A stretch of 32,000 bases of DNA from Geotalea daltonii FRC-32 (GCF_000022265.1 NC_011979.1:1470001-1502000), one strand, 5' to 3'; shown: positions 2,091-22,920, counted from the stretch's first letter. The notes: generated from the sequence alone by a model not told the origin. Made by a program: numbers and translations.

Positions 2091-2115
2091 AAAAAGGCCG
2101 CCCCAGAGGGTGGCC
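2091..2115 (-). terminator. rho-independent terminator for the minus-strand MCP remnant
   Basis: GGCCGCCC (2096-2103) pairs with GGGTGGCC (2108-2115), with one G-U pair and loop CAGA. A5 at 2091-2095 gives a U-run on the minus transcript. Confidence 0.7.
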
Positions 2116-2135
2116 TCGTAATAGTGCCGGTGGTT

Positions 2136-2393: not shown

Positions 2394-2458
2394 GCAGCTG
2401 GATATTTCTGCATGGTTGAATTATAGTGACCTATCACGAAAGCATCTATCCATAGGCC

Positions 2459-5863: not shown

Positions 5864-5864
5864 C

Positions 5865-6485: not shown

Positions 6486-6506
6486 ACCGTCACTATCGGG
6501 GGAAGT

Positions 6507-6920
6507 ATGAAGGAATACGTGAAGAGTTCGCCGCAGTTCTTTCGCCTCATTAAAATATCGACCGTCGTTGTCGTCGCGGTGATTTCGCTCCTGGCAATCC
6601 TTATCACTGCCCCCCTTCAGGAACCAGCTGACTTGGCCAAAGTGCCCAACCCTGTCAAGTCGGCCTGGTTTCTCCTCTGGATCCAGGAACTGGTCAGCTA
6701 TTCCAAATACCTGATCTATGCAGTGGCCCTGACAGCCGCCTTTTTCTTCATCCTTCCCTGGTTTCCTTCCGCCAGCACGACGGAAAAAGCCCGTTGGTTC
6801 GCCACGGGGCAGCCGGCGGTGAACGTCATAACTATCATTGTCTTCATAGCCATAACCGCTCTCACCATTATCGCCATGTTCTTCAGAGGTGCCAACTGGT
6901 CGCTGGTCGTCTTTTCATAA
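6507..6920 (+). CDS. extQ: subunit-IV-like membrane protein (C-terminal half of cytochrome b)
   Basis: GGGGGAAG RBS. PNPVKSAWFLLWIQELV aligns with the PEWYF region of PetD / cytochrome b C-terminal domains. Three TM segments. Confidence 0.8.
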   Translation: MKEYVKSSPQFFRLIKISTVVVVAVISLLAILITAPLQEPADLAKVPNPVKSAWFLLWIQELVSYSKYLIYAVALTAAFFFILPWFPSASTTEKARWFATGQPAVNVITIIVFIAITALTIIAMFFRGANWSLVVFS

Positions 6921-6931
6921 TCCTTGCCCTG

Positions 6932-7711
6932 ATGCTGCTCTTCCCTGCCATGGTATCGGCGGGCCGGAAAAGTGCCTGTCTAACCTGTCATCCATCCCAC
7001 CATACCGGCCGCGGCAGCTGCACCGGCTGTCATCGTGGGAACGATCGTAGCGAGAGGAAAAATATTGCCCATCACGGCTTGATCGGCGGCCGCTATGCCC
7101 ACTTCACCATCCCGGGCAGCAAGGTTGTAGAAGAAGGCAAAAAGCTGATCGGTGCTGGAGGCTGCCGGCGCTGTCACACGACGGGAGACCGTGGTAATCG
7201 GCTGGCTGCCGATCTGGACAAGCTTTTTCCGGGCGCATCACCCGAGGACGTCTTCAAGGCGATCAAAAACCCGGTGCTCTATATGCCTGATTTCCATTTT
7301 GTCGATACCGAAATCGTCTCCCTGGTCAATGCCATTGCCAGCGGCGCCAGGCAGGAAACGGACCGCCAGAGAGAAATTGTGCAGGTGGTTCATTTTATAG
7401 ATGATGGCTTGGCCAGGGAAAACAGCTTCGTCAGACTGTGCGGCTCCTGTCATAAGCTGTTGAGCCACCGCTACGGCGGCCTGGGCAGCGGCCATATGGG
7501 GCCTAGCCTCTCGGGGCTTTTTAGTGAGTTTTATCCCGCCACCTTTGCCGGCAAGACCAGGTGGCGGGAGGATAACCTGAAAAGGTGGCTGAAAAACCCC
7601 CGCAAGGTTCGGCCAAATGCCTTGATGCCACCTGTTGCAGTCACGGCAGCCGAGTTGGAACAACTGACAGACGCCATGGTTGTCCCCTACCAGGAAAAGA
7701 ATTCACGCTAA
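6932..7711 (+). CDS. extS: tetrahaem c-type cytochrome with a C-terminal class-I cytochrome c domain
   Basis: CLTCH, CTGCH, CRRCH and CGSCH. The C-terminal CGSCH...ALMPP is class-I-like. The start is uncertain: ATG 6932 has no clear RBS and gives a very short signal peptide, and the TTG 6794 of the track would overlap the previous gene by 127 nt. Confidence 0.75.
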   Translation: MLLFPAMVSAGRKSACLTCHPSHHTGRGSCTGCHRGNDRSERKNIAHHGLIGGRYAHFTIPGSKVVEEGKKLIGAGGCRRCHTTGDRGNRLAADLDKLFPGASPEDVFKAIKNPVLYMPDFHFVDTEIVSLVNAIASGARQETDRQREIVQVVHFIDDGLARENSFVRLCGSCHKLLSHRYGGLGSGHMGPSLSGLFSEFYPATFAGKTRWREDNLKRWLKNPRKVRPNALMPPVAVTAAELEQLTDAMVVPYQEKNSR

Positions 7712-7831: not shown

Positions 7832-8026
7832 ATGGCAAAAATAGCGTGGGTCGATGAGGACGTCTGTATCAGCTGCGGTTTGTGCGTTAACAACCTTTCG
7901 GGGGTGTTTCGCTTCAATGATGATGGCAAGGCCGAGTGTTACAATCCGGAAGGGGCAGCGGAAGATGAGATCCAGCGGGAGGCCATCGATGCCTGCCCGG
8001 TTTCATGCATCCATTGGAAAGAGTAA
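7832..8026 (+). CDS. small single-cluster ferredoxin
   Basis: CISCGLC ... CP cluster motif, 64 aa. GGCGGAGG RBS 7 nt upstream. Confidence 0.85.
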   Translation: MAKIAWVDEDVCISCGLCVNNLSGVFRFNDDGKAECYNPEGAAEDEIQREAIDACPVSCIHWKE

Positions 8027-8239: not shown

Positions 8240-8292
8240 GTTGTTGCGAAGCTTTGCAAAACAAAAGTAGATCAGGAAGCCTGACCGGGAAA

Positions 8293-8322
8293 GGCGGGGC
8301 AGAAATGCTCCGCTCTTTAATT
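8293..8322 (+). terminator. candidate terminator hairpin (GGCGGGGCA-GAAA-TGCTCCGCT, then CTTTAATT)
   Basis: 9-bp stem with two G-U pairs and a GNRA loop. The T-tract is weak. Confidence 0.35.
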
Positions 8323-8693
8323 ACCAACCCCGACTCCATACGGCAGAATGAGGATGATTGAGCAGACCCTGGAAAGGTCCAGGGCGTTGACCTGAGATGC
8401 GTCGCCTAACGCTGGCCGGTTTTTTTGACAGATGCCTCGGTATAATTCCCCGCAGAGACCACCATTAGACCTCAGAACCTCGTCAGTACCGAATTTTTAT
8501 CAACTTTATTTTCATAAAATCCTTATAACTCAAGCAGATGCAAACTGTCAATTGCACTCTGCAGCGGATCGTGCTATTTATCGGCTGCCAGGATTAGAAA
8601 CGATTATTCGAAAGTGAGTCGATTGCCACCTTTGTGTGGCCGAGGGGGCGGTAATCCGTTGTTTCTTAATGGCCTAAATTACAGGAGGGGTAG

Positions 8694-9449
8694 ATGGAAA
8701 AGGACATTTTAATAGTCATGCAGGAAGACCTTGAGCGTGCCCTGAAAAAACCTGCGGAAGAGCGCCGTTGGGCCATGCTCCTTGACCTGCGCAAGTGTGT
8801 TGGCTGTCATGCCTGCACCATTGCCTGCGTCTCGGAAAACAAGCTCCCACCGAAACTTACCTATCGCCCTGTGTTCGAGTACGAGCAGGGAAAATACCCG
8901 AAGGTAAACCGCAGCTATTTGCCCAAGCCGTGCATGCAGTGCGACAAGCCGCCTTGCGTTGCCGCTTGTCCGGTTAAAGGCCCGGATGGTGCCACCTGGA
9001 AGGAAACCAAGGGGATCGGCAACGGCATCGTTCCGGTCAATTACGCCAAATGCATCGGTTGCGGCAATTGTGTTCCCGCCTGCCCCTATCAGGCCAGAAC
9101 CATGGATGACGGTTCCTTTCACACGGCAGGCACTCCCCAGCTGCAGGTCTACGAAACACTTCCCGCATTCGAGTATGGCAAAAAGTGGCCGCGCAAGGAG
9201 AATACTCTTCCCATCGGCAAGGCGCGTAAGTGTCACTTCTGTATCCATCGCCTTGCCAATGGCATGCTGCCCCAATGCATCACCACCTGCATCGGCAGGG
9301 TCGGCTACTTCGGCGATGAGAGTGATCCAAAAAGCCTTATCGCCCAGGTGAAGAAGGGGAACAAGATTCAGATCCTGAAGAAAAAGCTCGGCACGGCGCC
9401 TCGTGTTTATTACATCGCCAATGAGAAGCTGGAGGTAATCTATGGATAG
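8694..9449 (+). CDS. 4x[4Fe-4S] electron-transfer subunit of a molybdopterin oxidoreductase (TtrB/PsrB/DmsB family)
   Basis: Four Cys groups: CVGCHACTIAC, CMQCDKPPCVAACP, CIGCGNCVPACP and CHFC...CITTC. AGGAGG lies 5 nt upstream. The stop overlaps the next start by 8 nt. Confidence 0.9.
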   Translation: MEKDILIVMQEDLERALKKPAEERRWAMLLDLRKCVGCHACTIACVSENKLPPKLTYRPVFEYEQGKYPKVNRSYLPKPCMQCDKPPCVAACPVKGPDGATWKETKGIGNGIVPVNYAKCIGCGNCVPACPYQARTMDDGSFHTAGTPQLQVYETLPAFEYGKKWPRKENTLPIGKARKCHFCIHRLANGMLPQCITTCIGRVGYFGDESDPKSLIAQVKKGNKIQILKKKLGTAPRVYYIANEKLEVIYG

Positions 9450-12400
9450 GCATGAAGATAAAGAACTTCTTGAAAATGAAGAACTTCTTGAAAATAAAGG
9501 TATGAGCCGCAGAAAATTTCTCAAGACCAGTGCCATGGTCGGTTGTGGCGCGCTGGTGGCTGCCCAGCTGGACTTTGCCAAAGGGTTGATAGCCCGTGTC
9601 GAAGCAGGCGAAATTACCGAAGCCGAGGCGTACGAGCTGATGAAGGCGGAAAACACTCTCTACACGGTTTGTCTCAATTGCAACACCGGTTGTGGCATCA
9701 AGGTGAAGATTTTTGAGGGAGTGGCGGTCAAGGTGGACGGCAACCCGTACAACCCTTTTACTCTCCATCCGCATTTGGAGATGAAAGAAGACATCGCCAG
9801 GGGAGCCAAGATTGATGGCGCCATCTGTCCTAAGGGGCAGTCAGGCCACCAGGGGGCATACGATCCCTACCGAATCCGCCAGGTCTTGAAGAGGGCCGGC
9901 AGGAGGGGAGAGGGAAAATGGCAGTCGGTTCCCTTCGATCAGGCGGTCAGCGAGATCGTCAATGGCGGTCTCCTCTTCAGCCATGTTCCCGGAGAAGAAA
10001 ACCGCCACGTGGATGGTTTGAAATCCCTTTATGTCCTCACCGACCACAAGGTCTATGAGGAAATGGGGAACGATGTTGCCAAAATCCGCAAGAAAAAGAT
10101 GACGGTTGCCGAATTCAAGACCAAGCATGCCGCCAATCTGGATAAGCTCATCGACCCCGACCACCCGGACTTCGGCCCGAAGAACAACCAGTTCGTCTAC
10201 TGGTGGGGACGGAAGAAAGGGGGGAGAAGCGATTTTGCCAAGCGCTTTACCGAGCAATTCGGCACAGTCAACACCCACGGCCATACCACGGTCTGCCAGG
10301 GCTCCCTCTACTTTGCCTGCAAGGCCATGAGCGAGCAGTACGTGGGGGACACCTTCAAGGACGGTCAGAAATTCTACTGGCAGCCCGACCAGGAGAACTC
10401 CGAGTACATCCTTTTTGTCGGCTCCAACCTCTTCGACGGCAATTACGGACCTCCCAACCGGACACCTCGAATGACCCAGCGTATGGTGGAGGGAAAACTG
10501 AAGACCACGGCCGTCGACCCGCGCTTCACCAAGCTGGCTGCCAAGGCCAACCGCTGGCTGCCGATCCAGCCGGGCACCGATGCCGCCCTTGCCATGGGAA
10601 TGACCCGCTGGATTCTGGAAAACAAGCGTTTCGATGCCAAATATCTGGCCAATGCCAACAAAGCAGCTGCCGCAGCCGACAAGGAGACCACTTGGAGCAA
10701 CGGCGCCTGGCTGGTCAAGCTTGACAAGGATGGAAAGCCGGGGGTTTTCCTCCGGGCCTCGGAAATAGGCCTGAAGGCCAAAGAGGTACGCAAGGACAAG
10801 GATGGCAAGGATTTCGATTTCGAGTACCTGGTGGCCATGAAGGACGGCAAACCGGTTGCCTTCGATCCCAATGACGAGAAAGAGGCCGTGGAAGGGGAGC
10901 TGTTTGTTGCCGCCGAACTGACGGACAAGGACGGCAAGCCGGTCAAGGTGAAGAGCGGCCTGCAGGTAATGCTGGAAACTGCCAAGGAGAAAACCCTCGC
11001 CGAATACGCCAAGATTTGCGGCCTTGAAGCCAAGGTCATCGAGGAGGTGGCGAGGGAACTGACCAGCTATGGCAAAAAGGCTGCCGTCGATGTTCACCGC
11101 GGCCCGGCCCAGCATACCAACGGCTTCTATAACATTGCTTCTCTGATGAACCTGAACCTGCTTCTGGGCAACTTCGACTGGAAGGGGGGCATGATCGTCG
11201 CTTCCACCTATAACACCGACGGCACCAAGAGCGAAAAGCAGCCTTTCAACCTGAAGAAGATCAGCCCGAAAGGGGCAAAACCCTTCGGACTGTCCATTAT
11301 CCGTCACGATGCCAAATACGAGGAATCGACCCTTTTCGAGACGGCCAAATATCCGGCCAAACGCAACTGGTGGCCGCTCTCTTCCGACGTTTATGAGGAA
11401 ATCCTCCCTTCCATGGCCGATGCCTATCCCTATCCGGCCAAGGTAGTCTTCTCCTATATGGGTGCGCCATCCTACTCGCTACCTGCAGGCCACACCATGA
11501 TCGAGGCGCTGGTCAACACCGACCGCATTCCTCTCTACTTCGCCAGCGATATAACCATCGGCACTACAACCATGTATGCCGACTATATCTTCCCCGACCT
11601 TCACTACCTGGAGCGTTGGGAGATGCAGGGATCGCACCCCAACATGCCGGTCAAGGTGCAGCCGATCCGCCAGCCGGTCATTCCTTCCCCCAATGAGGTG
11701 GTCAAGGTTTTCGGCGAGGAGCAGCCCATATCCTATGAGACTCTGTGGCTGGCCCTGGCCGAGAAACTGGGACTGAAGGGATTCGGTCCCAACGGCTTCG
11801 GTGAAGGGAAGCCCCTTACCCGTCCCGATGATTTCTACATCCGAATGGTCGCCAACGTGGCTGGAGACGGCAAGGAGCCGGTGCCCGATGCCGGTGCGGC
11901 GGAGATTGAGACCTTCCTCAAGGCCCGAAGGCACCTGCCGAAGAATGTTTTCGATGTGGATCGTTGGCAGAAGATCGCCGGACCCGCCTTTGCCAAGGTG
12001 GTGTATGTGCTGAACCGTGGCGGGCGCTTTGACAGCCAGGCCAATACCTACAAGGGAGATCATGTGGCCAACAAGTACGGCAAGCAGATCAACCTCTATC
12101 AGGAAAAGACCTACAAGTGCAAGGATGCTTTCACCGGCAAACATTACTACGGCATGGCCCGCTACATGCCGGTTGTGGATACCCTTGACCGGCCGCCCGT
12201 GGAGCAGTCGAAGGGGTACGACCTGCACCTGATCACCCAGCGGGACATTCGCATGACCAAGTCCCGCACTATCACCAATCAGTACTTGACCGACTCCATC
12301 CCGGAAAACAGCATCATCATCCATACCAGGGACGCCAAGCGGCTGGGCCTGAAGGCCGGGCAGAAGGTGAAGGTGGTTTCGTCCACCAATCCGGCAGGGG

Positions 12401-12693
12401 AGTGGGATCTGAAGAACGGGACGAAAGTGCCTATGATCGGCAAGGTGCAGATTACCGAGACTATCCGCCCGGGTGTTGTAACCTTTACCCTTGGCCACGG
12501 CCATTGGGCTACCGGCGCCGGCGACGTGACCATCGACGGCAAGGTGATCAAGGGGGATCCCAGGAGGGCTGCCGGCATCCATGCCAATGCAGCCATGTGG
12601 ATCGACCCGCACCTGAAGAACACCTGCATGATCGACAAGGTGGGGGGAAGCGTGTCGTTCTATGATACAAAAGTGAAGTTGGTGAAAGTGTAA
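9442..12693 (+). CDS. Tat-exported bis-MGD molybdopterin oxidoreductase catalytic subunit, large TtrA/SrdA-like type (copy 1)
   Basis: 1083 aa. Twin-arginine SRRKFLK. N-terminal CxxCxxxC...C [4Fe-4S] motif (CLNCNTGC...CPKG). GHTTVCQGS is the candidate Cys Mo ligand. GNPYNPF and KRAGRRGEGKW resemble TtrA as I recall it. GGAGG lies 6 nt before ATG 9442; alternative start ATG 9502. Confidence 0.85.
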   Translation: MDRHEDKELLENEELLENKGMSRRKFLKTSAMVGCGALVAAQLDFAKGLIARVEAGEITEAEAYELMKAENTLYTVCLNCNTGCGIKVKIFEGVAVKVDGNPYNPFTLHPHLEMKEDIARGAKIDGAICPKGQSGHQGAYDPYRIRQVLKRAGRRGEGKWQSVPFDQAVSEIVNGGLLFSHVPGEENRHVDGLKSLYVLTDHKVYEEMGNDVAKIRKKKMTVAEFKTKHAANLDKLIDPDHPDFGPKNNQFVYWWGRKKGGRSDFAKRFTEQFGTVNTHGHTTVCQGSLYFACKAMSEQYVGDTFKDGQKFYWQPDQENSEYILFVGSNLFDGNYGPPNRTPRMTQRMVEGKLKTTAVDPRFTKLAAKANRWLPIQPGTDAALAMGMTRWILENKRFDAKYLANANKAAAAADKETTWSNGAWLVKLDKDGKPGVFLRASEIGLKAKEVRKDKDGKDFDFEYLVAMKDGKPVAFDPNDEKEAVEGELFVAAELTDKDGKPVKVKSGLQVMLETAKEKTLAEYAKICGLEAKVIEEVARELTSYGKKAAVDVHRGPAQHTNGFYNIASLMNLNLLLGNFDWKGGMIVASTYNTDGTKSEKQPFNLKKISPKGAKPFGLSIIRHDAKYEESTLFETAKYPAKRNWWPLSSDVYEEILPSMADAYPYPAKVVFSYMGAPSYSLPAGHTMIEALVNTDRIPLYFASDITIGTTTMYADYIFPDLHYLERWEMQGSHPNMPVKVQPIRQPVIPSPNEVVKVFGEEQPISYETLWLALAEKLGLKGFGPNGFGEGKPLTRPDDFYIRMVANVAGDGKEPVPDAGAAEIETFLKARRHLPKNVFDVDRWQKIAGPAFAKVVYVLNRGGRFDSQANTYKGDHVANKYGKQINLYQEKTYKCKDAFTGKHYYGMARYMPVVDTLDRPPVEQSKGYDLHLITQRDIRMTKSRTITNQYLTDSIPENSIIIHTRDAKRLGLKAGQKVKVVSSTNPAGEWDLKNGTKVPMIGKVQITETIRPGVVTFTLGHGHWATGAGDVTIDGKVIKGDPRRAAGIHANAAMWIDPHLKNTCMIDKVGGSVSFYDTKVKLVKV
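9460..9495 (+). repeat. 18-bp tandem duplication (17/18 identical) in the Tat signal n-region
   Basis: aaagaacttcttgaaaat / gaagaacttcttgaaaat, giving KELLEN-EELLEN. Confidence 0.9.
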
Positions 12694-12723
12694 AGATCAT
12701 CTGAAAATTCTTTTTTAACCCTC

Positions 12724-12757
12724 AGCGGGCTGCCGGAAACGGTAGCCCGCTTTTTTT
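12724..12757 (+). terminator. rho-independent terminator after the ttrBA-like operon
   Basis: AGCGGGCT (12724-12731) pairs with AGCCCGCT (12744-12751), followed by a T-run through 12757. Confidence 0.85.
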
Positions 12758-12840
12758 GGGACCGGACTCATGAAATCAACTAAAGGGTATACCTCACATG
12801 CCGATACGTTGGAACATATGCTATCTAAAGGAGGATACTG

Positions 12841-13614
12841 ATGAAGAAGACATGTGCTGTGCTATGCGGAATTGCTCTGCTAACCATGGGAGGGGCACTT
12901 GCCCAGGCTGAGGTCGTCAAGCTCCACGGTTCGACTACCTGCCAAAAGCGGATCTTCGAACCGGGCAAGGATGCTCTGAAAAAAGCCACCGGTATCGACC
13001 TCGAACTGGTGGGTAACGGTACCGGCAACGGCCTTGAAGACCTGGTAGCCGGCAAGGCTGATGCCTCCATGGCCTCTGAAGAATTGGTCGATGCCGTAGC
13101 CAGCATGAAGGCTGCCACCGGCAAGGATGCATCGGCTGACCTGAAACCGAATGTCATCACAACGGATGTCATCAAGGTAATAGTCAACCCGGCCAACCCG
13201 GTGAGCAAGCTCTCAAAGGACCAGCTAAAGGGGCTTCATACCGGCGCTATCGACAATTGGAAGTCGGTTGGCGGACCTGACCAGCCGGTTATTGTCGTTA
13301 CTTCCCACTCGGGATCTGCAACCCGGAAAGTATTCTCAAAACTGATGATGGACAACGCCAAGTATGTTGATGGCGCCATTGAGGTGAAGACCACGAGGGA
13401 GGAAATAGACAACGTCGGCCAGCTCTCCGAGGCGATCGGCGCGGTCAGCATGGGGTTCATCAACCTGCCGGGCAACAAGGAAAAAGTAAAAATTGTCGAG
13501 ACGTCGGAAATCAGCCGTCCTTTGATGCTGATAACCCGGGGCGAGCCGTCGGCCAAGGTGAAGAAGGTGCTTGATTTTTTCACCGGCGAGGGAAAGAAGT
13601 ATATCAAGGACTAG
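12841..13614 (+). CDS. periplasmic PstS-family (PBP_like_2) substrate-binding protein, orphan (PBP-1)
   Basis: Signal peptide ...GGALAQA. HGSTT, GNGTGNG, LSKDQLKGLHTGAIDNWKSVGG and HSGSATRKVF motifs. AAGGAGG lies 6 nt upstream. No transporter genes nearby. Confidence 0.85.
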   Translation: MKKTCAVLCGIALLTMGGALAQAEVVKLHGSTTCQKRIFEPGKDALKKATGIDLELVGNGTGNGLEDLVAGKADASMASEELVDAVASMKAATGKDASADLKPNVITTDVIKVIVNPANPVSKLSKDQLKGLHTGAIDNWKSVGGPDQPVIVVTSHSGSATRKVFSKLMMDNAKYVDGAIEVKTTREEIDNVGQLSEAIGAVSMGFINLPGNKEKVKIVETSEISRPLMLITRGEPSAKVKKVLDFFTGEGKKYIKD

Positions 13615-13637
13615 GTAAAGCTTTTACTCAACAAAAG

Positions 13638-13659
13638 GGGGGCGCAGGCCCCCTTTTTT
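13638..13659. terminator. hairpin GGGGGC-GCAG-GCCCCC flanked by A4 and T6, between PBP-1 and MCP-1
   Basis: Read directly. The T6 run is at 13654-13659. It could attenuate rather than fully stop readthrough into MCP-1. Confidence 0.65.
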
Positions 13660-13687
13660 ACCCTGTTGAAGTGAGGACATATCCCGC

Positions 13688-16171
13688 ATGACCATCAAGA
13701 CCAAACTCTTTGCCAATATGTTTCTGACCATTGCCGGTATTTTAATTATTGCCGGTTTCAGCCTGGGGGGCATGCGGTTCGTGCAGAGCAAACTGGCTGT
13801 TCTCACGGAGAAGTCCACCCCCTATCAGTTGAAGACCATTGAGCTCCAACGGGCAGTGCAGGAGCACACTTCGAACCTGCTCAAGCTGGCTACCGCAACA
13901 ACGGCCCAGGAACTGACAGCAGCACGCGGGGAGCTGGAAAAAACATTGGCGGATGTGAAGAGCCTGTCAACGGAACTTTCATCGTTCAAAGGGAGCAATA
14001 CTGCCGATGGAGCAGAAAAGCAGCACCTTGACGAACTTGCCTCCATCACTGCCGAATTGGTCCGAACTGTAGATGAGAAGCTGAAAGCCCGGGATGAGGC
14101 AAAAAAAGCCGACACCGAGACGAAAGGGAAGTTGCAGCAGATCGGCCAGAAGCTGAAGGAGATGGACGGGGCGATGAAGAAGCTGCAGAAGGGCTCCATG
14201 GGCCAACTCTCCACCTCCAACGAGAGCGTCAAGCAGATCAGCCAACGGGTCAAGATTGTGCAGGCGACGATGAATTCCATCAATGATGTGAAGATTTCGC
14301 TCCTCGAGATTGCCGCCGCTGAGAACAAGGCCGGCGTAACCGTCGCCCGTAGCCACTTTACGGTAGCTTCACGCTGGATAACGACCGGCGCCCTGGCCAA
14401 AGCCGAAAAAGACAGCGCTGCGGTGAAAAGCCTCATTGATGGTATTGGTGAAATAACCAAGCAGGTCACCGGCGCCGGCGGGCTGATCGAGACCAAAAAT
14501 GCATTGCTTGCCACCCCGACCGATGATCTGAGAAAGCAGTTCAGCGAGACGAATGCTTCTGCCATGCAGAAACTTGCCCAGATGACGGTCCTGATGGGTG
14601 ATCTGGTGGAAAAGGCTGCCGAGACCAATACCTCGGAAAACAAACGGTTTGAAGAATCATTGAAGGGCTCGGAATCAGCCAGTACCGTCATGGGGATGAA
14701 CTCGGACCTGGTGGGCATAGGTGGTGACATTCGCAGTCTTACCAAAGAACTGTTCGATGCCGACAATCCCCAGGAACTGGATACCATACGGAGCGAACTG
14801 GAGCAGGAGTTTGCTCAGGCGGACGGGGTGCGAAACCGGATGCGCTCGGGCAAGAAAGGACAGGAACTGCGCCAGCTCGGCCAGGTGACGGCTGCACTGC
14901 AGGATATCCGCGGGCTGCTCCTGGCCAAAGACGGTGTGGTGGCGAAGCTGAAGCACTCCCTGGAGGTTACGCGACAGGCGCAAGCCCTCAACGAAAAGTT
15001 GAAAGGTGTCGTTGCTGCCCAGCGCGAGGAGGGTAAAAAAGGGATGAGTAGTGCTCAGCAGGAACAGAGCAAGGCGGTCAAATCTGTGAACAGGGTCTTC
15101 AAGACCAGCATAACCTCTGTTACCATCATAGCTCTGGCTGTTCTCGTGCTGGGTATCGTTTTCAGCACCGGCCTGGTCAGATCGATCACTGCCCCTATCA
15201 AGGAGCTGACAAGCATTTCCGAGAAATTCGGCAACGGCGATTTCAGCAGCAGACTGGACGAAAAACGCAAAGATGAATTCGGTACTCTTGCCGTACATTT
15301 CAACCAGGCCACGGTCAAACTGAAGGAAATAACTTCCCAGATACGGGGCGCCATCGGCAACCTTGCCCATAGCGCTAATGCGCTGACGACAACGGCCGAG
15401 GAACTCAGCGCCGGTGCCCGCCAGCAGGCTACCCAGACAGATCAATCGGCTTCAGCCATGATCGAGATGAGCCAGACCATTCAGGATGTGGCACGTAATG
15501 CCCATGAGGCGGCCGCCGAAACGAAAAACACCCTTCTGTTGGCGGCGAACGGGCAAAAAACAGTGGGTGAAACGGTGCGCGGCATGGAGGAAATAGCAAG
15601 CTCCGTGAAGGAAACAGCTGATACGATACGGCAGCTTGGGGAAAATTCAGCGAGAATCGGTTCGGTTGTGGATGTCATTAACGAAATTGCCGACCAGACC
15701 AACCTGCTGGCTTTAAATGCGGCCATAGAAGCGGCACGTGCCGGTGACGCCGGTATGGGGTTTGCCGTTGTTGCCGACGAAGTAAGAAAGCTTGCCGAAA
15801 AAACGGCCGAGTCCACCAAGGAAATAGCCCAGATGGTAGCCCAGATACAGGCAAACACCAGCAAATCAGTGGTGGCGATGGAAAAGGGCACGGTGAAGGT
15901 TGAGGAGGGGATGCAGCGGGCGACTGAGGCGAATCGATCACTGGATGAAATCGTCAATGCTTCAGATAAAGGTGTTGCCATGGTTCAGACTATTGCCACA
16001 GCCTCTGAAGAGCAATCGGCAGTCGCCGCAGAGGTCTCCACCAGCATGGAACACATTGCATCCATAACCCGCGCAGCGGAGACGTCAACCAACGATATTA
16101 CCCGCTCCGCCGAAGAACTGAACCGCCTTGCTGAAGATTTGAATAACATGGCTGCATGGTTCAAGGTTTAA
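13688..16171 (+). CDS. methyl-accepting chemotaxis protein with ~445-aa helical periplasmic domain (MCP-1)
   Basis: TM1 is about residues 8-29 and TM2 about 475-497, followed by a HAMP domain. Hairpin tip [41 protein letters not shown]. About 136 residues per cytoplasmic arm, consistent with the 40H class. Confidence 0.9.
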
Positions 16172-16194
16172 GGTGAAAATGCCGGAAAGGCAGG

Positions 16195-16227
16195 AAAAAG
16201 GGCTGCGGACAACGCAGCCCTTTTTTT
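16195..16227. terminator. bidirectional rho-independent terminator shared by the convergent MCP genes
   Basis: A5, then GGGCTGCG (16200-16207), loop GACAA, CGCAGCCC (16213-16220), then T7. Confidence 0.9.
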
Positions 16228-16229
16228 GA

Positions 16230-18461
16230 TCAGGCCGTTTCGGTGAGCACCACCGTTTCGCCGTCAATGTCCTCTATATTTTCTGCAATGCCAGTTTCAT
16301 CTTCCATTTTAAAGACATTCATCTCTTTTTGCAGGATATCGGTCTGGTCTGAGAGGCTGGAGACGGCGGTGTTGAGGATCTGGGTCGCTTCCAGATTTTT
16401 CCCGGTCGACTTTTCTATTTTTGCCACAGCCTGAACTATTTTGGCACTGGACTCGGTCTGGACGTCGCAGGCAGATTTGATGCTGCTGATCATCTCCGTC
16501 ATGCTTTCAGTGGATTTGGCGATGCTGCTGCTGGCTCTTGCCTGCTCCCTGGTGGACGAACGGACCTGGTTGGCGAAACCGGTCATGCGTTCCACCGTTG
16601 CGACGATGAAATCGCTGACCTTGGCCTGTTCCTTGGTTGCGCTGCCGATCTGCTGGACCATGGAAGAAACATTTTCCATTGCTTCATTGATGATACGGCT
16701 GCCCCCGGCCTGTTCCACTGCTGTGCGTGCGATGGCACGCATGCGGTCGGTGGACTGTTTGACGCCGCTGACAATCTTTTCCAGGGCCTCGCCGGATAGT
16801 CTGGAGAGATGTGCACCTTCCTGGATGTACTTTTCTGCAGAGCCTATTGCACTTACCGCCTTTTCGGTCTCCAGTTGCACACCCTTGATCAACGTGGTTA
16901 TCTCTCCTGTTGAGCTCTTGGTTCTTTCGGCAAGCTCCTTTATCTCATCGGCGACAACGGCGAAACCCTTGCCGTGTTCACCGGCCTGGGCGGCAATGAT
17001 GGCGGCATTCAGGGCCAGCAGGTTGGTCTGTTCAGTCACATCATCGATAACCCTGATAATGGCCCCGATATTCTCTGTTTTTTCTGAAAGGGCTGTTATG
17101 ACTTCTGCCGTAATAAGCGATGCGGAGCGGATCTGATCCATGCCGGCGATGGTTGCCCCCACGGAATCTTTGCCGATTTCCGCGTCCTTCAAGACTTCTG
17201 CGGCGATGGAAGCTGTTTCTTGTGAATTCCTCTCGATCTCCTTTATGGAGGAGTCCATCTGGGAAACGGAGGAGGCCGTTGCCGCGGATGTATCCATCAA
17301 GGCCGATGCACTTTCACTGATCTGTTTTATGGCAGCGGCAATTTCGGTAATGGAGGAGCTGACTTCCACCACCGATTCGACCAGCGATTCCATGTTTCCT
17401 GCCACTTCTTCAACGCTGGCGGCCATTTCCAGAATGGAAGAAGAGGTCTCGGAAGCCGAAATGGACAGGCTGTCCACGCCATGGGCTACGTCCTTCACCG
17501 AGGTATTGATGGCCTGTACTGCCAGGGAAGTTTCTCCGATGTCGTTTGCCTGCAGGTCTGCAGATTCCGATACGGAACTGGATGCCTGGTAGATCTGCCC
17601 GGACACTGTGGCCAGATCCCGAGCCGAGGCGCTGATACGCTTAACCATATGGCTCAGGCTTGCCACCATCCTGTTGAGCGCTGCGGAAAGTTCACCGATC
17701 TCATCACTTGAACTGACGGCAACTGTCTCGGAAAGGTTGCCTTCTGCCACAGATTGGGCAAAGTTGACCCCCTTGACCAGGGGACTGGTAATGGAACGGG
17801 CAACCCAAGTGATCGCCAGGAGTACTACCAGGAACAGCCCGGCGCTGACACTGCCGGCAATGATGATCTTTTGTCTGATCAGCTTGGCCGTAACAGCCTC
17901 ACGTTCCTCGATCTCCATGCGCAGCGTATCCACAGTGCTGCCAACCTGCTCGATAAAGCGGTCATAGCGCATTTTCTGCACATTCTGGGCAAGCTCAAGG
18001 GCCACGGCTCTGTTACCCTGCCGGGCGGCAGGAATCTGTTCATTCTGCATGGTATCCAGGAATTCCTGCCATGTTATTTGCGCATCCTGAACGGCTAGCT
18101 TTTTTTCTTCCGAATCAAGCTTGTTGATGATGGCAGTGAACTGGTCGTTGATCTCTGTGGTGATCTGCTGGATATCCCCGACAATAACTTCCTGTTCATC
18201 GCCATTTTCCTCGCTGATCAAGGTGATGACCTCGGCCCTCACCCGGTTAAGGTCGGATTTGAGAAAGGCGATCTGCTCAATGGTGTCTCTGGAATTCTTG
18301 ATGTCCGTATAAATTCTGCTGCCAACCTTTACCTGGTTGATGGTGTAGTAACTCATGCCGAGGGAGACGGCAAAACCGAAAAAGACAACTGCCATGATAA
18401 GCAGCATCTTGGTTTTTATTTTCATGTGGCCGATGAAATTCAACCTCTGTCCCAGTTTCAA
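16230..18461 (-). CDS. methyl-accepting chemotaxis protein, 4HB-type sensor, very long cytoplasmic hairpin (MCP-2)
   Basis: TTG 18461 lies 8 nt after AAGGAG; alternative start ATG 18425. TM1 is about residues 18-37. The periplasmic domain is about 160 aa. TM2 is about 199-221, followed by a HAMP domain. Tip [39 protein letters not shown] near residue 496. About 220 residues per arm, consistent with the 64H / 40+24H class. Confidence 0.9.
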
Positions 18462-18487
18462 GGTTTGACTCCTTATGCAGTATTAAA

Positions 18488-18512
18488 GCGCCGCACAGAT
18501 AGCATGCGGCGC
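18488..18512 (-). promoter_or_regulatory. 8-bp GC-rich hairpin between PBP-2 and MCP-2 (weak terminator or attenuator)
   Basis: GCGCCGCA / TGCGGCGC with a 9-nt loop. On the minus transcript only UUUAAUA follows it. Confidence 0.5.
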
Positions 18513-18529
18513 TTTGGGCAAAAATTGAG

Positions 18530-19351
18530 TTATTTTACCTTCCGGACCGGGACGAAATTTTTGCCGACAATCGCCTGACCTTCGCTGGAGAGCATAAAGG
18601 AAATAAACTCTTTGACTTCCCCTTTTGCAACACCCTTGGTTATCAGGTTAAGGGGCCTGGAGATGAGATAGGCGCCGGAACGGACATTCTTGTCATCGGG
18701 GGCGGTGTTGTTGACGGAGATAGGTTTCACCTTTCCCTTGATGTCCCCTGGAAGGGTCGCGTAGAGGCCGAGGCTGACGCTGCAGATGCCATTTTCATCC
18801 TTTGCCACTTCAATGATCTGATCGCGGGGAAGGTCGATCTGCTTGAACTTGGCGTGGGGGGCGCCATCCAGGACGTGCTCCTGGAACATTTCGATAGTGG
18901 CCCGCTTGCCATCGAGAATTTCCGTATTGGGAACGATGGGTGCATTTTTCCCACCGACTTCCTTCCAGTTTTTGATCTTGCCGGTAAAAATACCCTTGAG
19001 CTGTTCCTTGCTGAGGTTTTTGATGGGGTTGTTCTTATGGACGAAGACGGTAACGGCATCATAGCCTATGGTGGTGGAAGAGAGCCTTTCCTTCTTCTCC
19101 TCAGGCTTCAGGGGCCTGGATGCTCCGGCCACCATGACCTTGCCCTCGATCAGGGCCTTTACCCCCTTACCCGAACCTGGAATTTCGATGGAGGACAATT
19201 TTTTGCCTGTTTTGTTCGCAAAGGCGTCGGCTGCACCGGCATTCAGTATACCGGTGCCGATTGTGGATGAGCCGCTGTAGGTGATATCTGCCAAGGCAAA
19301 GGTGGGAAGAATGAAGAGGGCGGAAAGGACCATACAAAACTTTTTCAACAT
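18530..19351 (-). CDS. periplasmic PstS-family (PBP_like_2) substrate-binding protein, orphan (PBP-2)
   Basis: Signal peptide ...PTFALA. SGSST, GSGKG, GASRPLKPEE and LSKEQLKGIFTGKIKNWKEVGG motifs. AGGAGG lies 5 nt upstream. Confidence 0.9.
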   Translation of the reverse strand: MLKKFCMVLSALFILPTFALADITYSGSSTIGTGILNAGAADAFANKTGKKLSSIEIPGSGKGVKALIEGKVMVAGASRPLKPEEKKERLSSTTIGYDAVTVFVHKNNPIKNLSKEQLKGIFTGKIKNWKEVGGKNAPIVPNTEILDGKRATIEMFQEHVLDGAPHAKFKQIDLPRDQIIEVAKDENGICSVSLGLYATLPGDIKGKVKPISVNNTAPDDKNVRSGAYLISRPLNLITKGVAKGEVKEFISFMLSSEGQAIVGKNFVPVRKVK

Positions 19352-19383
19352 GAAAACCTCCTGAGCATAAAATGGTGCAGATA

Positions 19384-19403
19384 GTGAAATATATCTATTT
19401 CAC
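19384..19403. promoter_or_regulatory. perfect inverted repeat GTGAAAT-N6-ATTTCAC in the divergent PBP-2 / ttrA-like-2 control region
   Basis: Read directly. It lies 33-52 nt upstream of the PBP-2 start codon. Confidence 0.45.
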
Positions 19404-19475
19404 AGTTGATTCTAATCGTGTTTTCTGCTCGAACAATACTGCTGATGAGCAATAATTGCACCATTTTTATTAAAG

Positions 19476-19504
19476 TTCACGTTTGCGGATAAATAGCCTA
19501 TGCT
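19476..19504 (+). promoter_or_regulatory. candidate sigma70 promoter for ttrA-like-2 (-35 TTCACG, 17-nt spacer, -10 TATGCT)
   Basis: Hexamer matches are 4/6 and 4/6. Located about 200 nt upstream of ATG 19702. Confidence 0.3.
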
Positions 19505-19701
19505 GCAGCTATTTGCGTATTTCCATGGCCGCCAGGGTTACTGCCGGATCACGTAGTTGCAGTGTGGAAATGGGGCAATAACGTATTTTGCTTATCCTGG
19601 GCGCAGGCAAAAGTCTTTGGTTGTCTTTATCGGCTTTTTTGCTATCTTAAATCCGGTCCAGGTTGCCATGGGCATCATTAAATCCCAGCCGGAGTACATG
19701 C

Positions 19702-22700
19702 ATGAGTGAAGGGAGCAGGAGACATAAAGGGGGCGGCATCACCCGTCGCGAGTTTCTCAGAAACAGCGCCCTGGCCGGTTGCACTGCGCTGGTAGCATCG
19801 CAGCTGGAATTTATCCATGGCCTTATTGCCCTGGTCGAGGCGCAGGAACTGACAGAGATGGAGGCCTACGAGCTGATGCGATCCGATCGCACCTTGTTTA
19901 CCGCCTGCCTTAACTGCAATACCGGATGCGGCCTCAAGGTGAAGATGATCGACGGGGTCATTGTCAAGATCGACGGCAACCCTTACAACCCATTTGCCCT
20001 CCATCCCCATCTTCCCATGTCGATGTCGCCATATAAAACCTCTAAGACCGATGGCGCCATCTGCCCCAAAGGTCAGTCTGCCCACCAGGGGGCATATGAC
20101 CCTTACCGGATTCGCAAGGTTCTGAAACGGGCCGGCAGGCGGGGCGAAGGGAAATGGATTTCCATTCCCTTTGACCAGGCTGTCACTGAGATTGTCAACG
20201 GCGGGGTTATCTTCAGCCATGTGCCGGGGGAAGAAAAGCGGCAGATTACCGGTCTCAAGGAACTGCATGCCATGCATGACCCTGCGACATTTGCGGCGAT
20301 GGCCGGGGATGTGGAGATGATCTGCAAGAAAAGGATGACCGTTGCCGAGTTTAAAGCCAGGCACGCCGAAAACCTGCATCTGCTCATCGATCCCGACCAT
20401 CCCGATTTCGGGCCGAAGAACAACCAGTTCGTCTATTTCTGGGGGAGGATCAAGGGGGGACGGAGCGATTTCGCCAGGCGCTTTACCGATGCCTTCGGGA
20501 CGATCAATACCCATGGCCATACCACCGTCTGCCAGGGATCTCTCTACTTTGCCTGCAAAGCCATGAGCGAACAGTACGCCGGCAACGGCTTCAGGGGGGG
20601 GCAGAAATTTTATTGGCAGGCGGACCAGGAGCATGCGGAATATATACTCTTTGTGGGCGCTAACCTGTTCGACGCCAACTACGGCCCTCCCAACCGCACG
20701 CCACGGATGACGGAACGGCTGGTGACGGGAAAGCTGAAGATGACGGTCATCGACCCGCGCTTCACAAAGCTTGCGGCCAAGGCCCAGCGCTGGGTGCCCA
20801 TCAGGCCGGGGACAGATGCCGCCTTTGCCATGGGGATGACCCGCTGGATTCTGGAAAACAGACGCTTCGATGCCACCTATCTGGCCAATGCAAACCGGGC
20901 GGGGGCGACCAAGGATCAGGAACCGACCTGGAGCAACGCCACCTGGCTGGTGAAAATTGACGATAATGGTGAGCCCGGCGCCTTTCTCCGTGCCTCGGAG
21001 ATAGGATTGAGGCCGAAAGAGGTGCGTAAGGACAAGGAAGGCAGAAGCTTCGAATTTGAATTCCTGGTGGCGATACGGGACGGGGAGCCGGTTGCCTTCG
21101 ATCCCAATGATACCCGATTGCGGGTTCGGGGAGAATTATTCGTCGATACCGTGCTCAAAGGGGAGCATGGCCCGGTAAGGGTGAAAAGTTCCCTGCAACT
21201 CATGCTTGAGGCGTCACGGGAGCGGACGCTGGCGGAATACGCGGCCGTCTGTGGCATCGAGCCGGGAATAATAGAGGCCGTGGCAAGGGAGTTCACCTCC
21301 CACGGCAAGAAAGCCTGTGTAGAGGTTCACCGCGGCGCCGCCCAGCATACCAATGGCTTCTACGCCGTTTCGGCCCTGATGAACTTGAATCTGCTCATGG
21401 GCAATTTCGACTGGAAAGGGGGCATGATTGCTCCTGCCACCTTCAACTATGATGGCAGCAGTAATGACAGGCAGCCCTATAATTTGAAAAAGATGTCGCC
21501 CAAAACCGGCAAGCCCTTCGGCCTGTCCGTCATCCGCCACGGTACGGCCTATGAAGATTCGACCATCTTTGCCGGCTATCCGGCCAGACGCAACTGGTGG
21601 CCCCTTTCTTCCGACATTTACCAGGAAATTCTTCCCTCCATCGCCGACGCCTATCCATACCCGATCAAGGCCCTGTTCTCCTACATGGGGAGCCCATCCT
21701 ATGCCCTTCCCGCCGGAGATGCGGGCATTGCCGCCCTGACCGATCTGGAGCGGGTGCCACTCTATTTTGCCAGCGACATTACCATCGGCAGCACCAGCAT
21801 GTATGCCGACTATGTTTTTCCAGACCTTCACTTTCTGGAACGATGGGAATTCCAGGGCTCTCACCCCAATATGCCGGTAAAGGTGCAGCCGGTCCGGCAT
21901 CCCGTGATCGTCTCCCCCAATGAGGTGGTCAAGGTATTCGGTGAAGACCAGCCCATCTCCTTTGAGACCCTCTGGCTGGCCCTGGCGGAAAAACTCGAAC
22001 TCCCCGGCTTCGGCAAGGACGGCTTTGCCACCGGACTTGACTTGAAAACGCCGGAGCAGTTCTATTGGCGCATGGTGGCGAATTTGGCCTATGACGGCAG
22101 TGTCCCGGTCGCCGATGCCGGTTCTGAAGAGGTGGGGCTTTTCTATGAGAGCCACAGGCACCTTCCCACCAGCGTTTTGAGGATCGATCAGACCGGAGAC
22201 CTGGATACGGTGCAGTTGAGCAAGGCAATCCATATCCTCAACCGGGGTGGCCGCTTCGATACCCAGGAATCTGCCTATGACGGCGATTATGCAGCGAACA
22301 GGTACGGTCGTCTCATCAACCTTTACCAGGAAAAGACGGCGCTGGTTAAGGATGCCTTTACCGGCAGGCATTTCCATGGCCTGCCAGGGTACCAGCCGGT
22401 GGCCGACACCCTGGACAGGGCGCCGGTGGCCATTTCAAAGGGCCATGACCTCCACCTTATCACCCAGAAGGACATCAGGATGACCAAGAGCAGGACGGTC
22501 AGTAACCAGTATCTGACCGGACTCTTTCCGGAAAATGCCATTATGGTCAATGCCGCCGACGGCAAAAGACTGGGACTGAAACAGGGCCAGAAGGTCAAGG
22601 TGGTCTCTGCCACCAACCCGAGCGGGGAGTGGGTTCTGGGCAACGGCGTGAAAAAACCGATAATCGGGCGGGTGCAGCTGACCGAGACCATCCGCCCAGG

Positions 22701-22920
22701 CGTCATAACCTTTACCCACGGCCACGGTCTCTGGGCAAGCGGTGCCACCGACATGGTAATTGACGGCATATTCATCAAGGGGGATCCCCGCCGGGCCGGG
22801 GGTGTCAATGCCAACGCCGCCATGTGGCTTGATCCCCATCTGAAGAACACCTGCATGATCGACAAGGTTGGGGGGAGCGTGTCATTCTATGATACGAAGG
22901 TCAGATTGGTAATGGTTTAG
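19702..22920 (+). CDS. Tat-exported TtrA/SrdA-like molybdopterin oxidoreductase catalytic subunit (copy 2, no adjacent Fe-S subunit)
   Basis: ATG 19702 lies 7 nt after GGAG. Twin-arginine TRREFLR. Same CLNCNTGC...CPKG and GHTTVCQGS motifs as copy 1. It is collinear with copy 1 over the full length and roughly 70% identical by eye. Confidence 0.85.
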   Translation: MSEGSRRHKGGGITRREFLRNSALAGCTALVASQLEFIHGLIALVEAQELTEMEAYELMRSDRTLFTACLNCNTGCGLKVKMIDGVIVKIDGNPYNPFALHPHLPMSMSPYKTSKTDGAICPKGQSAHQGAYDPYRIRKVLKRAGRRGEGKWISIPFDQAVTEIVNGGVIFSHVPGEEKRQITGLKELHAMHDPATFAAMAGDVEMICKKRMTVAEFKARHAENLHLLIDPDHPDFGPKNNQFVYFWGRIKGGRSDFARRFTDAFGTINTHGHTTVCQGSLYFACKAMSEQYAGNGFRGGQKFYWQADQEHAEYILFVGANLFDANYGPPNRTPRMTERLVTGKLKMTVIDPRFTKLAAKAQRWVPIRPGTDAAFAMGMTRWILENRRFDATYLANANRAGATKDQEPTWSNATWLVKIDDNGEPGAFLRASEIGLRPKEVRKDKEGRSFEFEFLVAIRDGEPVAFDPNDTRLRVRGELFVDTVLKGEHGPVRVKSSLQLMLEASRERTLAEYAAVCGIEPGIIEAVAREFTSHGKKACVEVHRGAAQHTNGFYAVSALMNLNLLMGNFDWKGGMIAPATFNYDGSSNDRQPYNLKKMSPKTGKPFGLSVIRHGTAYEDSTIFAGYPARRNWWPLSSDIYQEILPSIADAYPYPIKALFSYMGSPSYALPAGDAGIAALTDLERVPLYFASDITIGSTSMYADYVFPDLHFLERWEFQGSHPNMPVKVQPVRHPVIVSPNEVVKVFGEDQPISFETLWLALAEKLELPGFGKDGFATGLDLKTPEQFYWRMVANLAYDGSVPVADAGSEEVGLFYESHRHLPTSVLRIDQTGDLDTVQLSKAIHILNRGGRFDTQESAYDGDYAANRYGRLINLYQEKTALVKDAFTGRHFHGLPGYQPVADTLDRAPVAISKGHDLHLITQKDIRMTKSRTVSNQYLTGLFPENAIMVNAADGKRLGLKQGQKVKVVSATNPSGEWVLGNGVKKPIIGRVQLTETIRPGVITFTHGHGLWASGATDMVIDGIFIKGDPRRAGGVNANAAMWLDPHLKNTCMIDKVGGSVSFYDTKVRLVMV

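Follow-up and report, generated by a model that had tools for sequence, protein, structure and literature searches.

PstS-derived binding protein-chemoreceptor modules beside TtrBA-like molybdoenzymes in Geotalea daltonii FRC-32: candidate arsenic sensors

Results

We describe a seven-gene locus at positions 8694-22920 of a 32,000-nucleotide stretch of Geotalea daltonii FRC-32 DNA (NC_011979.1:1470001-1502000; "the window" throughout), in which two periplasmic binding protein (PBP) genes, each paired with a gene for a methyl-accepting chemotaxis protein (MCP), lie between two paralogous molybdoenzyme genes. On the + strand, a TtrB-like subunit with four 4Fe-4S clusters (8694-9449; ACM19711; Pfam Fer4_11, best NCBIfam model TtrB) is followed by TtrA-like-1, the 1083-amino-acid catalytic subunit of a bis-molybdopterin guanine dinucleotide enzyme assigned by Pfam and NCBIfam (9442-12693; ACM19712), by PBP-1, a predicted secreted PstS-family protein (12841-13614; ACM19713; Pfam PBP_like_2, E 1.6e-23), and by MCP-1 (13688-16171; ACM19714; HAMP and MCPsignal domains), which is annotated as "class 40H". 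Convergent with these, on the - strand, a second predicted secreted PstS-family protein, PBP-2 (18530-19351; ACM19716; PBP_like_2, E 7.2e-33), precedes MCP-2 (16230-18461; 4HB_MCP_1, HAMP and MCPsignal), whose start is possibly the ATG at 18425. A divergent promoter region of 350 bp (19352-19701) separates this unit from TtrA-like-2, an orphan paralogue on the + strand recognized by Pfam and NCBIfam (19702-22920, in an open reading frame (ORF) running from 19663); its start is probably Met14 at 19702, as the product from there is 100% identical over 1072 amino acids to the deposited protein. The locus corresponds to the deposited proteins ACM19711-17, of which ACM19711-ACM19716 were found by exact-sequence look-up. 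All seven genes are intact and full-length, and housekeeping genes lie 3' of them in the window.

The gene order and orientation that the original prediction had read from this DNA are borne out by our ORF listing with Pfam and NCBIfam, and each PBP gene does stand directly 5' of a co-oriented MCP gene. The accompanying claim that the window holds no ATP-binding cassette (ABC) permease or ATPase also stands: Pfam scans of all major ORFs found no ABC transporter component in the window, and the combination of Walker A and LSGGQ occurs in no window open frame of at least 120 amino acids.

PBP-1 and PBP-2 are 31% identical to each other. Both had been predicted to carry Sec signal peptides, in agreement with the signal-like N-termini ..ALAQA (before E) and ..FALA (before D), which were read by eye from the sequence and not with a predictor. 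The PstS/PBP_like_2 hallmarks attributed to them are present as well, the GS[ST]T motif as HGSTT and SGSST, and the motif LSK[DE]QLKG..TG.I.NWK.VGG as LSKDQLKGLHTGAIDNWKSVGG and LSKEQLKGIFTGKIKNWKEVGG, but the resemblance to PstS stops short of the phosphate-binding arginine, which is lost family-wide. Neither protein reaches the 206.6-bit cut-off of the PstS family model TIGR02136 (PBP-1 105.3 bits, PBP-2 165.9 bits). Their matches among PDB sequences are all PstS, with that of C. perfringens the best; ModA and TupA are absent from these matches, and no NCBIfam model of that kind was hit. An AlphaFold model of PBP-1, of moderate confidence (pLDDT 65), likewise found PstS structures as its top fold matches. 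By Pfam both proteins belong to PBP_like_2 and not to Phosphonate-bd (PF12974), the family of AioX and ArxX.

The phosphate of C. perfringens PstS is held by nine ligands, Ser11, Thr12, Ser13, Ser41, Ser59, Arg125, Ser129, Gly130 and Thr131 (PMC5381212). To map these positions, we aligned 24 proteins per PBP family with two PstS structures. The hydroxyl (Ser/Thr) ligands are 100% conserved in both families, as S31, T32, T33, T61, S79, S159 and T161 in PBP-1 and as S28, S29, T30, S60, S78 and T152 in PBP-2. Arg125, the only charged ligand of PstS, has become S155 in 24 of 24 PBP-1 proteins, where H156 stands beside it, and the neighbouring Arg60 has become E80; the S155 and E80 changes are invariant in the family. 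In the PBP-2 family Arg125 is replaced by E144 in 23 of 24 members, and a two-residue insertion, K149-R150, precedes A151-T152, R150 being invariant. These signatures hold down to about 45% identity, including relatives that have no MCP partner and lie in arsR-acr3 operons, in arr islands or in tandems of PBP-2-like and PBP-1-like genes. Because Arg125 is replaced and the scores fall under the TIGR02136 cut-off, we regard PBP-1 and PBP-2, at the level of sequence, as derived from PstS and not as orthodox phosphate binders. Reasonable guesses, and only that, would be a neutral or differently charged oxyacid as ligand of PBP-1 and an anion held by the relocated arginine as ligand of PBP-2.

These data bear directly on the simplest alternative, namely that the PBPs still bind phosphate, perhaps with tuned affinity, and serve phosphate taxis, their placement in arsenic islands (below) reflecting the dependence of arsenate toxicity on the phosphate/arsenate ratio. 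All of their nearest relatives in sequence and structure are phosphate-binding PstS proteins, and the PBPs retain six to eight of the nine ligand positions; against this stand the scores under the PstS cut-off and the replacement, in every member of both families, of the sole charged ligand. We return to this alternative with the genomic evidence.

MCP-1 has transmembrane helices at residues ~6-29 and ~470-502 and, between them, an all-helical periplasmic domain, here called LBD1, of about 440 amino acids; after the second helix come HAMP and the MCP signalling domain. LBD1 gave no relevant Pfam family at E<=10 and no match to the HBM family, and a profile search against PDB sequences returned coiled-coil noise only. 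Its single-sequence AlphaFold model had a pLDDT of 52 and no fold match below E 0.046; the top matches, which are not significant, were stacked four-helix-bundle sensors, TorS-TorT complexes among them. The periplasmic domain of MCP-2 (LBD2), again followed by HAMP and the MCP signalling domain, is a four-helix bundle of about 155 amino acids (4HB_MCP_1, E 2.4e-11) and TarH-like. Tar-type four-helix-bundle domains are a class known to dock binding proteins.

Whether the pairing of PBP and MCP genes recurs was assessed in 116 loci (labelled L plus a number), 36 from an alignment scan of 185,579 species genomes with PBP-1 and 80 from a scan of metagenomes with PBP-2, all mapped by blastp against reference proteins. 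An MCP gene lies directly 3' of the PBP gene in 32 of the 33 PBP-1 loci with room for one and in all 22 PBP-2 loci at >=60% identity. Partners of PBP-1 relatives carry LBD1 in 34 of 35 cases and partners of PBP-2 relatives carry LBD2 in 21 of 25, and the two domains are never swapped between the PBP families across Geobacterota and Nitrospirota. In none of the 116 loci is the PBP gene accompanied by an ABC ATPase gene at a distance of up to 3 kb. The PBP-MCP pairs are thus real, conserved and autonomous two-gene modules, and their pairing is far beyond chance. Near-universal adjacency, family-specific pairing of sensor domains and the absence of adjacent ABC genes together support, from gene content, a functional tie of each PBP to its co-oriented MCP and not to a transporter, as the original prediction had supposed when it proposed that the PBPs present ligand to the MCPs.

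The sole PBP-1 exception, L033, has a PAS-GAF-GGDEF protein (11001-12392) in place of the MCP, while for PBP-2 relatives below 60% identity the next gene encodes another MCP (L074) or a HAMP-GAF-HD-GYP transducer (L108, 4635-6890), or else a PBP-1-like gene and molybdenum cofactor genes come next, in arsenic islands. As the transducers downstream in L108 and L033 carry GAF-HD-GYP and GGDEF domains, PBPs of these families may also feed cyclic di-GMP signalling. Tandems of a PBP-2-like and a PBP-1-like gene with the same pocket signatures and no MCP were found in L084 (3710-5379), L085 (2294-3969), L087, L092, L094 and L097, from which it appears that the two PBP types travel as a pair even without chemoreceptors; in L084 and L085, which are ars islands, MoaA and MoaD/E genes come after the tandems.

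The tandems raise the possibility that the PBPs are molybdate or tungstate sensors reporting the metal supply of the neighbouring molybdoenzymes, a suggestion to which the distant tandems followed by MoaA, MoaD/E, MobB and MoeA genes lend some substance, as does the marginal match of PBP-2 to the ModA-type family SBP_bac_11 (25.1 bits, cut-off 25). Those cofactor genes lie inside arr/ars islands, though, and plausibly serve the maturation of ArrA; the searches described above met no ModA or TupA, and the modules of Nitrospirota have no molybdoenzyme nearby. We hold this explanation to be very improbable.

The neighbours of the modules point elsewhere. Genes of the ars, arr or ttr-like kind accompany 18 of 23 PBP-1 loci of Desulfuromonadia type and 17 of 29 PBP-2 loci of at least 8 kb, the islands containing ArsR, Acr3, ArsC and ArsP together with either ArrAB or TtrBA-like enzymes in at least eight different arrangements, a number and diversity which argue against simple inherited synteny. 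In the closest metagenomic relative (L004) both modules stand in tandem, flanked by ArsR, Acr3, ArsP, thioredoxins and methyltransferases, and 6 kb separate them from a TtrBA-like pair. Geobacter sp. OR-1 (L005) has the order acr3-arsC-arsR, then divergently c7 cytochrome-TtrB-TtrA-PBP1-MCP1, its PBP-1 orthologue WP_041969780.1 being encoded directly 3' of the TtrA homologue, and Geobacter sp. DSM 9736 shares this layout. OR-1 is a proven arsenate respirer, and the L005 locus is the second, "resistance-only" arsenic island of its genome announcement; we considered and rejected the possibility that it is the published "arrA-arrB" island. In L007, L011, L012, L018 and L030 the modules adjoin genes for Geobacter-type ArrA, ArrB, a TorD-like chaperone and a ferredoxin, the ArrA proteins matching NF041714 over their full length with 875-1032 bits. 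Since L012 is syntenic with the window on the downstream side, ArrAB there takes the place of TtrBA. PBP-2 modules also occur in the arrangements arsR>PBP2>MCP2, with or without a following acr3, and PBP2>MCP2>arsR>arsC>acr3.

Elsewhere the modules occur alone, as in Geomonas subterranea and in Nitrospirota. In the Nitrospirota neighbourhoods, searched for a clue to the ligand, only PGI, radical-SAM, OmpR-type regulator and NfeD genes recur, in three loci each, and none is informative. The proposed coupling of the modules to the flanking enzymes consequently holds as an association at the level of the genomic island; a dedication to one enzyme family does not hold, with ArrAB beside the modules in sister genomes and no molybdoenzyme beside them in Nitrospirota, and in the window terminators set them apart from ttrBA-1 (below).

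Modules without arsenic context, like those of Nitrospirota, and the precedent of PstS-CtpL (PMC8050422) favour the phosphate alternative introduced above. Its other evidence is mixed. While pst and pho genes are often found in arsenic islands, no pstCAB, phoU or phoBR genes were seen adjoining the modules in the 116 loci, and several loci have their PBP genes inside gene strings headed by arsR. On balance we consider phosphate sensing unlikely.

Other binding proteins share these islands. Proteins of the PhnD type (Phosphonate-bd) recur beside TtrBA-like or ArrAB genes in L005 (13522-14487), L122, L041, L082, L084, L088 and L106; in Geomonas subterranea (L122, 13996-17590) the TtrBA-like genes are accompanied by a PhnD-type protein and a hybrid histidine kinase, with no PBP-MCP module beside them. 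By analogy with AioX/AioS and ArxX/ArxS, which they resemble, these proteins may form a separate transcriptional sensor of arsenic islands.

The flanking enzymes belong to a large clade (2909 matches at E<=1e-50). TtrA-like-1 and TtrA-like-2 are 70% identical and carry twin-arginine motifs (SRRKFL and TRREFL), so that both are predicted to be exported by the twin-arginine translocation (Tat) pathway. The TtrA model NF011567 is the best for both (494 and 471 bits) without its equivalog cut-off of 1750 being reached, PhsA is the second-best curated model for both, and the ArrA model NF041714 (cut-off 1600) gives partial matches of only 121 and 100 bits. The TtrB-like subunit scores 154 bits with NCBIfam TtrB, far under the cut-off of 416. 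No TtrC (an NrfD/PsrC-type membrane subunit), TtrS, TtrR or TtrSR-like pair was found among the scanned window ORFs. With scores under both cut-offs and neither TtrC nor TtrSR, the enzymes are, as judged by family models, neither true TtrA nor ArrA. The nearest solved structure is the polysulfide/thiosulfate reductase of Thermus (PsrA), with ArrA more distant.

TtrA-like-1 is 78% identical to WP_041969781.1 of Geobacter sp. OR-1, which corresponds exactly to L005:6614-9859. According to PMC11462812, this "TtrA homologue" is induced about 6-fold in As(V) respiration and has As(V) reductase activity; it and the homologue of Anaeromyxobacter sp. PSR-1 serve there as reference sequences (citing Tsuchiya 2019 and Muramatsu 2020), the sequences of the clade having been gathered at >70% similarity. 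Sequence identity thus places TtrA-like-1 in the clade of the OR-1 protein, a candidate alternative, non-Arr respiratory arsenate reductase. Arsenic genes surround members of this clade in OR-1, DSM 9736, L004, L008, L045 and an Acidobacteria metagenome-assembled genome (L123, JACPUT010000009.1, 7401-17995), and are absent around those of the window and Geomonas subterranea. The Acidobacteria locus, an independent case from outside the phylum of the Geobacter loci, has its TtrBA-like genes between arsC-aquaporin(MIP)-arsC and OprO/P-type porin-TatA-Rrf2-ArsR-ArsD-ArsA; its dedicated phosphate-selective porin suggests a route of arsenate into the periplasm.

The original prediction had favoured oxyanions of selenium, tellurium or sulfur. 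Under that explanation the enzymes would reduce compounds such as tetrathionate, thiosulfate, selenite or tellurite and the PBPs would sense them, as might be expected from the ranking of TtrA and PhsA among the curated models, from the Thermus structure and from the concession in PMC11462812 that genuine tetrathionate reductases may be included in the clade. The TtrA scores are nevertheless far under 1750, the genes for TtrC, TtrS and TtrR were not found in the window, the neighbours across genomes are ars and arr genes and not sulfur or selenium genes, and PBP-MCP modules stand beside true ArrAB in other genomes. Nor could the label "ext cluster", the supposed link to selenite and tellurite, be confirmed for the upstream genes, which encode multihaem cytochromes, a Rieske protein and cytochrome b with no porin-like gene identified among them. 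We therefore judge this explanation improbable: context (ArsR, Acr3, ArsC, ArsP, ArrAB) and the literature on the TtrA-homologue clade point to arsenic.

TtrA-like-2 is an orphan catalytic subunit without an Fe-S partner gene of its own, a state kept in the metagenomic contig L041 (6222-9503); its orientation relative to PBP-2 is divergent in the window and equally in Geotalea toluenoxydans (L029) and L041. It may share the TtrB of the first operon.

Counts of consensus promoters and terminators over the region were at chance level, and only two strong intergenic hairpins were used to delimit transcription units. The first, at 12724-12758 on the + strand between TtrA-like-1 and PBP-1, has a 12-bp stem with nine G-C pairs and a T7 tail. 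The second, at 16195-16227 between the convergent MCP genes, reads A5-GGGCTGCG-GACAA-CGCAGCCC-T7 and is a bidirectional intrinsic terminator. With terminators after ttrA-1 and between the MCP genes, each PBP-MCP pair appears to form a separate operon of two genes. The three upstream regions yielded no sigma-54-like promoter. A 13-mer, GCTATTTATCSGC (GCTATTTATC(G/C)GC), has exactly two copies in the window, at 8573-8585 (+) and 19485-19497 (-), both in promoter regions of the ttrA-like genes; the second copy, which G. toluenoxydans retains, lies inside the inverted repeat AAATAGC-N10-GCTATTT. As a common regulatory motif it was rejected, since at least two matches with up to two mismatches arise in 27% of shuffles and the choice was made post hoc.

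The non-coding leader 5' of TtrB (8240-8693, 443-454 bp, compared with L029 by blastn and tblastn) contains no riboswitch or other known RNA, a Rfam scan of the whole window at gathering thresholds having returned nothing. At this position the draft genome of G. toluenoxydans JCM 15764 (L029, NZ_BBCJ01000019.1; ~95% identical) carries a divergent arsR (HTH_5) with a c7-type cytochrome gene (Cytochrome_C7; L029 4745-5865), and all other close relatives likewise carry the two genes directly 5' of ttrB. In the same draft TtrA-1, PBP-1, PBP-2, MCP-2 and cytochromes are split by apparent frameshifts, likely sequencing errors and not pseudogenes because a newer assembly has full-length versions.

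The leader brings up a further alternative, that the locus is the remnant of a decaying arsenic island with no functional coupling in G. daltonii, its modules independent and its enzymes poorly expressed or otherwise used. It would explain why arsR and the c7 gene are missing, and it sits well with a window free of ars genes, with terminators that isolate the units and with modules that stand alone in other organisms. Decay is at odds with seven intact, full-length genes and with a divergent PBP-2/TtrA-2 arrangement kept in L029 and L041, and a remnant would in any case agree with, and not contradict, arsenic as the ligand of the modules. We regard it as distinctly unlikely.

Upstream, an electron-transfer cluster identified by Pfam and CXXCH counts occupies 554-7711. 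All of its genes are on the + strand and encode a 5-haem cytochrome (554-1531), a 12-haem lipoprotein-like cytochrome (2459-4312), a 10-haem cytochrome (4188-5510), a Rieske protein (5465-5863; Pfam), cytochrome b (5865-6485; Pfam), the product of a small ORF (6507-6920; ORF listing) and a 4-haem cytochrome c (6794-7711), the haem numbers being CXXCH counts. Homologues of the 5-haem cytochrome (81-84% identity) adjoin arr/ars islands in L082 (11258-12298) and L088 (15230-16222). A small single-cluster ferredoxin of 64 amino acids (7832-8026, +; Fer4_13, E 1e-14) is encoded after the cytochrome cluster and ahead of the ttrB leader. The upstream cluster could supply electrons from quinol to the periplasmic TtrBA-like enzyme, replacing the missing TtrC/ArrC anchor.

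Discussion

Based on these observations, we propose that the locus encodes a periplasmic molybdoenzyme of TtrBA type with an orphan paralogue, both of the proposed non-Arr arsenate reductase clade, together with two sensory modules. In each module a secreted PBP derived from PstS and freed from its transporter would capture a small oxyanion or oxyacid in the periplasm, dock on the helical periplasmic domain of the cognate MCP and so modulate CheA signalling. The likeliest ligands would be arsenate and/or arsenite, so that the cell would steer along arsenic gradients, presumably towards an electron acceptor or away from a toxic product, and G. daltonii itself would be expected to reduce arsenate. 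We are fairly confident of the sensing mechanism, that is, of binding by the PBPs and signalling through the MCPs. An arsenic ligand has a probability that approaches an even chance, and we put the combined statement, a TtrBA-type enzyme locus with two PstS-derived arsenic-sensing modules, evenly in the balance. A more specific version, in which PBP-2 with its relocated arginine would recognize anionic arsenate and PBP-1, having lost the arginine, neutral arsenite, so that the two form a complementary pair, is unlikely.

Several observations weigh against the arsenic proposal. The window has no ars gene; the arsR-c7 unit is absent and an unrelated non-coding stretch of about 440 bp stands in its place (blastn, tblastn). 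A terminator separates ttrBA-1 from PBP-1 and MCP-1, and the 13-mer common to both ttrA promoter regions lacks statistical significance. Arsenic is not singled out as ligand by the changes in the pocket, and the pLDDT of the PBP-1 model is lowest across the pocket motif (residues 154-204), for which reason the pocket analysis is based on alignment. For LBD1, fold assignment failed by Pfam, by the PDB profile search and by the fold search with the model. None of 13 Nitrospirota loci with PBP-1-MCP-1 modules has an arsenic gene nearby; the link to arsenic may thus reflect where one lineage has placed a sensor whose ligand is more general. We found no report of arsenate respiration by G. daltonii in the literature searched, and PMC11462812 gives the As(V)-reductase claim for the TtrA-homologue clade as a secondary citation, its authors themselves cautioning that substrate specificity within the clade is uncertain.

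Solute-binding proteins (SBPs) that act on chemoreceptors are normally encoded with transporters, the exceptions being archaeal BasB/BasT and CosB/CosT, and CtpL-PstS is the only chemoreceptor case in the PstS family (PMC8050422). The PstS-CtpL system of Pseudomonas aeruginosa resembles ours in its PstS-family protein, its tetrahedral oxyanion and the all-helical periplasmic domain of its chemoreceptor (PMC8050422). It differs in that its PstS is the transporter's own, encoded with pstCAB and away from ctpL, whereas PBP-1 and PBP-2 have no transporter, are encoded directly 5' of an MCP, score under the PstS cut-off and have lost the phosphate-binding arginine; moreover, LBD1 of MCP-1, unlike CtpL, has no match to the HBM family. 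BasB-BasT and CosB-CosT of Halobacterium salinarum share with our modules a PBP gene immediately beside that of its cognate transducer (PMC8050422), but they are archaeal, belong to the Peripla_BP_6/OpuAC families, have organic ligands and are not linked to any respiratory enzyme.

Similar, too, are the arsenite-sensing pairs AioX-AioS and ArxX-ArxS: a PBP dedicated to sensing and not to transport reports arsenic species to a transducer in the membrane, and its gene adjoins that of an arsenic redox molybdoenzyme. AioX, however, belongs to Phosphonate-bd and has as its partner a histidine kinase controlling transcription, whereas the window PBPs are of the PstS family and are proposed to signal to MCPs, with behaviour as the output. 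TorT-TorS likewise combines a transporter-independent PBP, docked on a stacked helical-bundle sensor, with a neighbouring molybdoenzyme (torCAD, trimethylamine N-oxide reductase) whose substrate it senses, but it drives transcription through a kinase and not chemotaxis, and its SBP family and substrate are different. In Agrobacterium tumefaciens GW4 a chemoreceptor gene, mcp, lies in an arsenic island and is linked to arsenite taxis (PMC5335332, abstract); GW4 is an arsenite oxidizer and no partner binding protein is named in that abstract, whereas the hosts of the PBP-MCP modules are reducers and the chemoreception we propose is SBP-dependent. A comparative paper on Desulfuromonas contains no link between arr and chemotaxis.

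The OR-1 and PSR-1 TtrA homologues remain the nearest precedent for the enzyme, the OR-1 locus agreeing with ours in the close identity of TtrA-like-1, in TtrB-TtrA order and in the PBP-MCP pair that follows. The window differs from it in lacking arsR, acr3 and c7 neighbours and in having the second, orphan paralogue. As reported in the available excerpts of PMC11462812, the OR-1/PSR-1 studies are not said to mention the PBP or MCP genes. The original prediction knew of no described system of this kind, which needs revision in one half: the enzyme part of the locus is already published, while the PBP-MCP part was not found in the literature searched. The modules are thus probably, judging from their genes, an unreported form of binding-protein-dependent chemoreception.

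Conclusions

With the PBP-MCP pairs, bacteria would offer a widespread example of binding proteins that act independently of transporters and share a locus with their own chemoreceptor; LBD1 adds an uncharacterized sensor domain of 440 residues to signal transduction. The pocket of PstS is famous for its rejection of arsenate, and the two PBP families, in which its sole arginine has been removed or relocated, are natural experiments that make phosphate/arsenate discrimination testable. If they are indeed a complementary pair of arsenic sensors, they would be the first PstS-fold proteins evolved to favour arsenic over phosphate, and the modules the first binding-protein-dependent chemoreception of a respiratory metalloid.

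Relatives of Geobacter are considered to play a major part in releasing arsenic into groundwater and rice paddies. In Japanese paddy soils, ttrA-type genes were transcribed more than arrA in a metatranscriptome (PMC11462812). Dedicated sensors of arsenic gradients, if confirmed as such, would change the modelling of hotspots of arsenic mobilization and provide new marker genes; were PBP-1 and PBP-2 a complementary pair, arsenate respirers of the Geobacter type would be organisms that read both their electron acceptor and its toxic product and navigate the arsenic redox gradients of aquifers and paddy soils.

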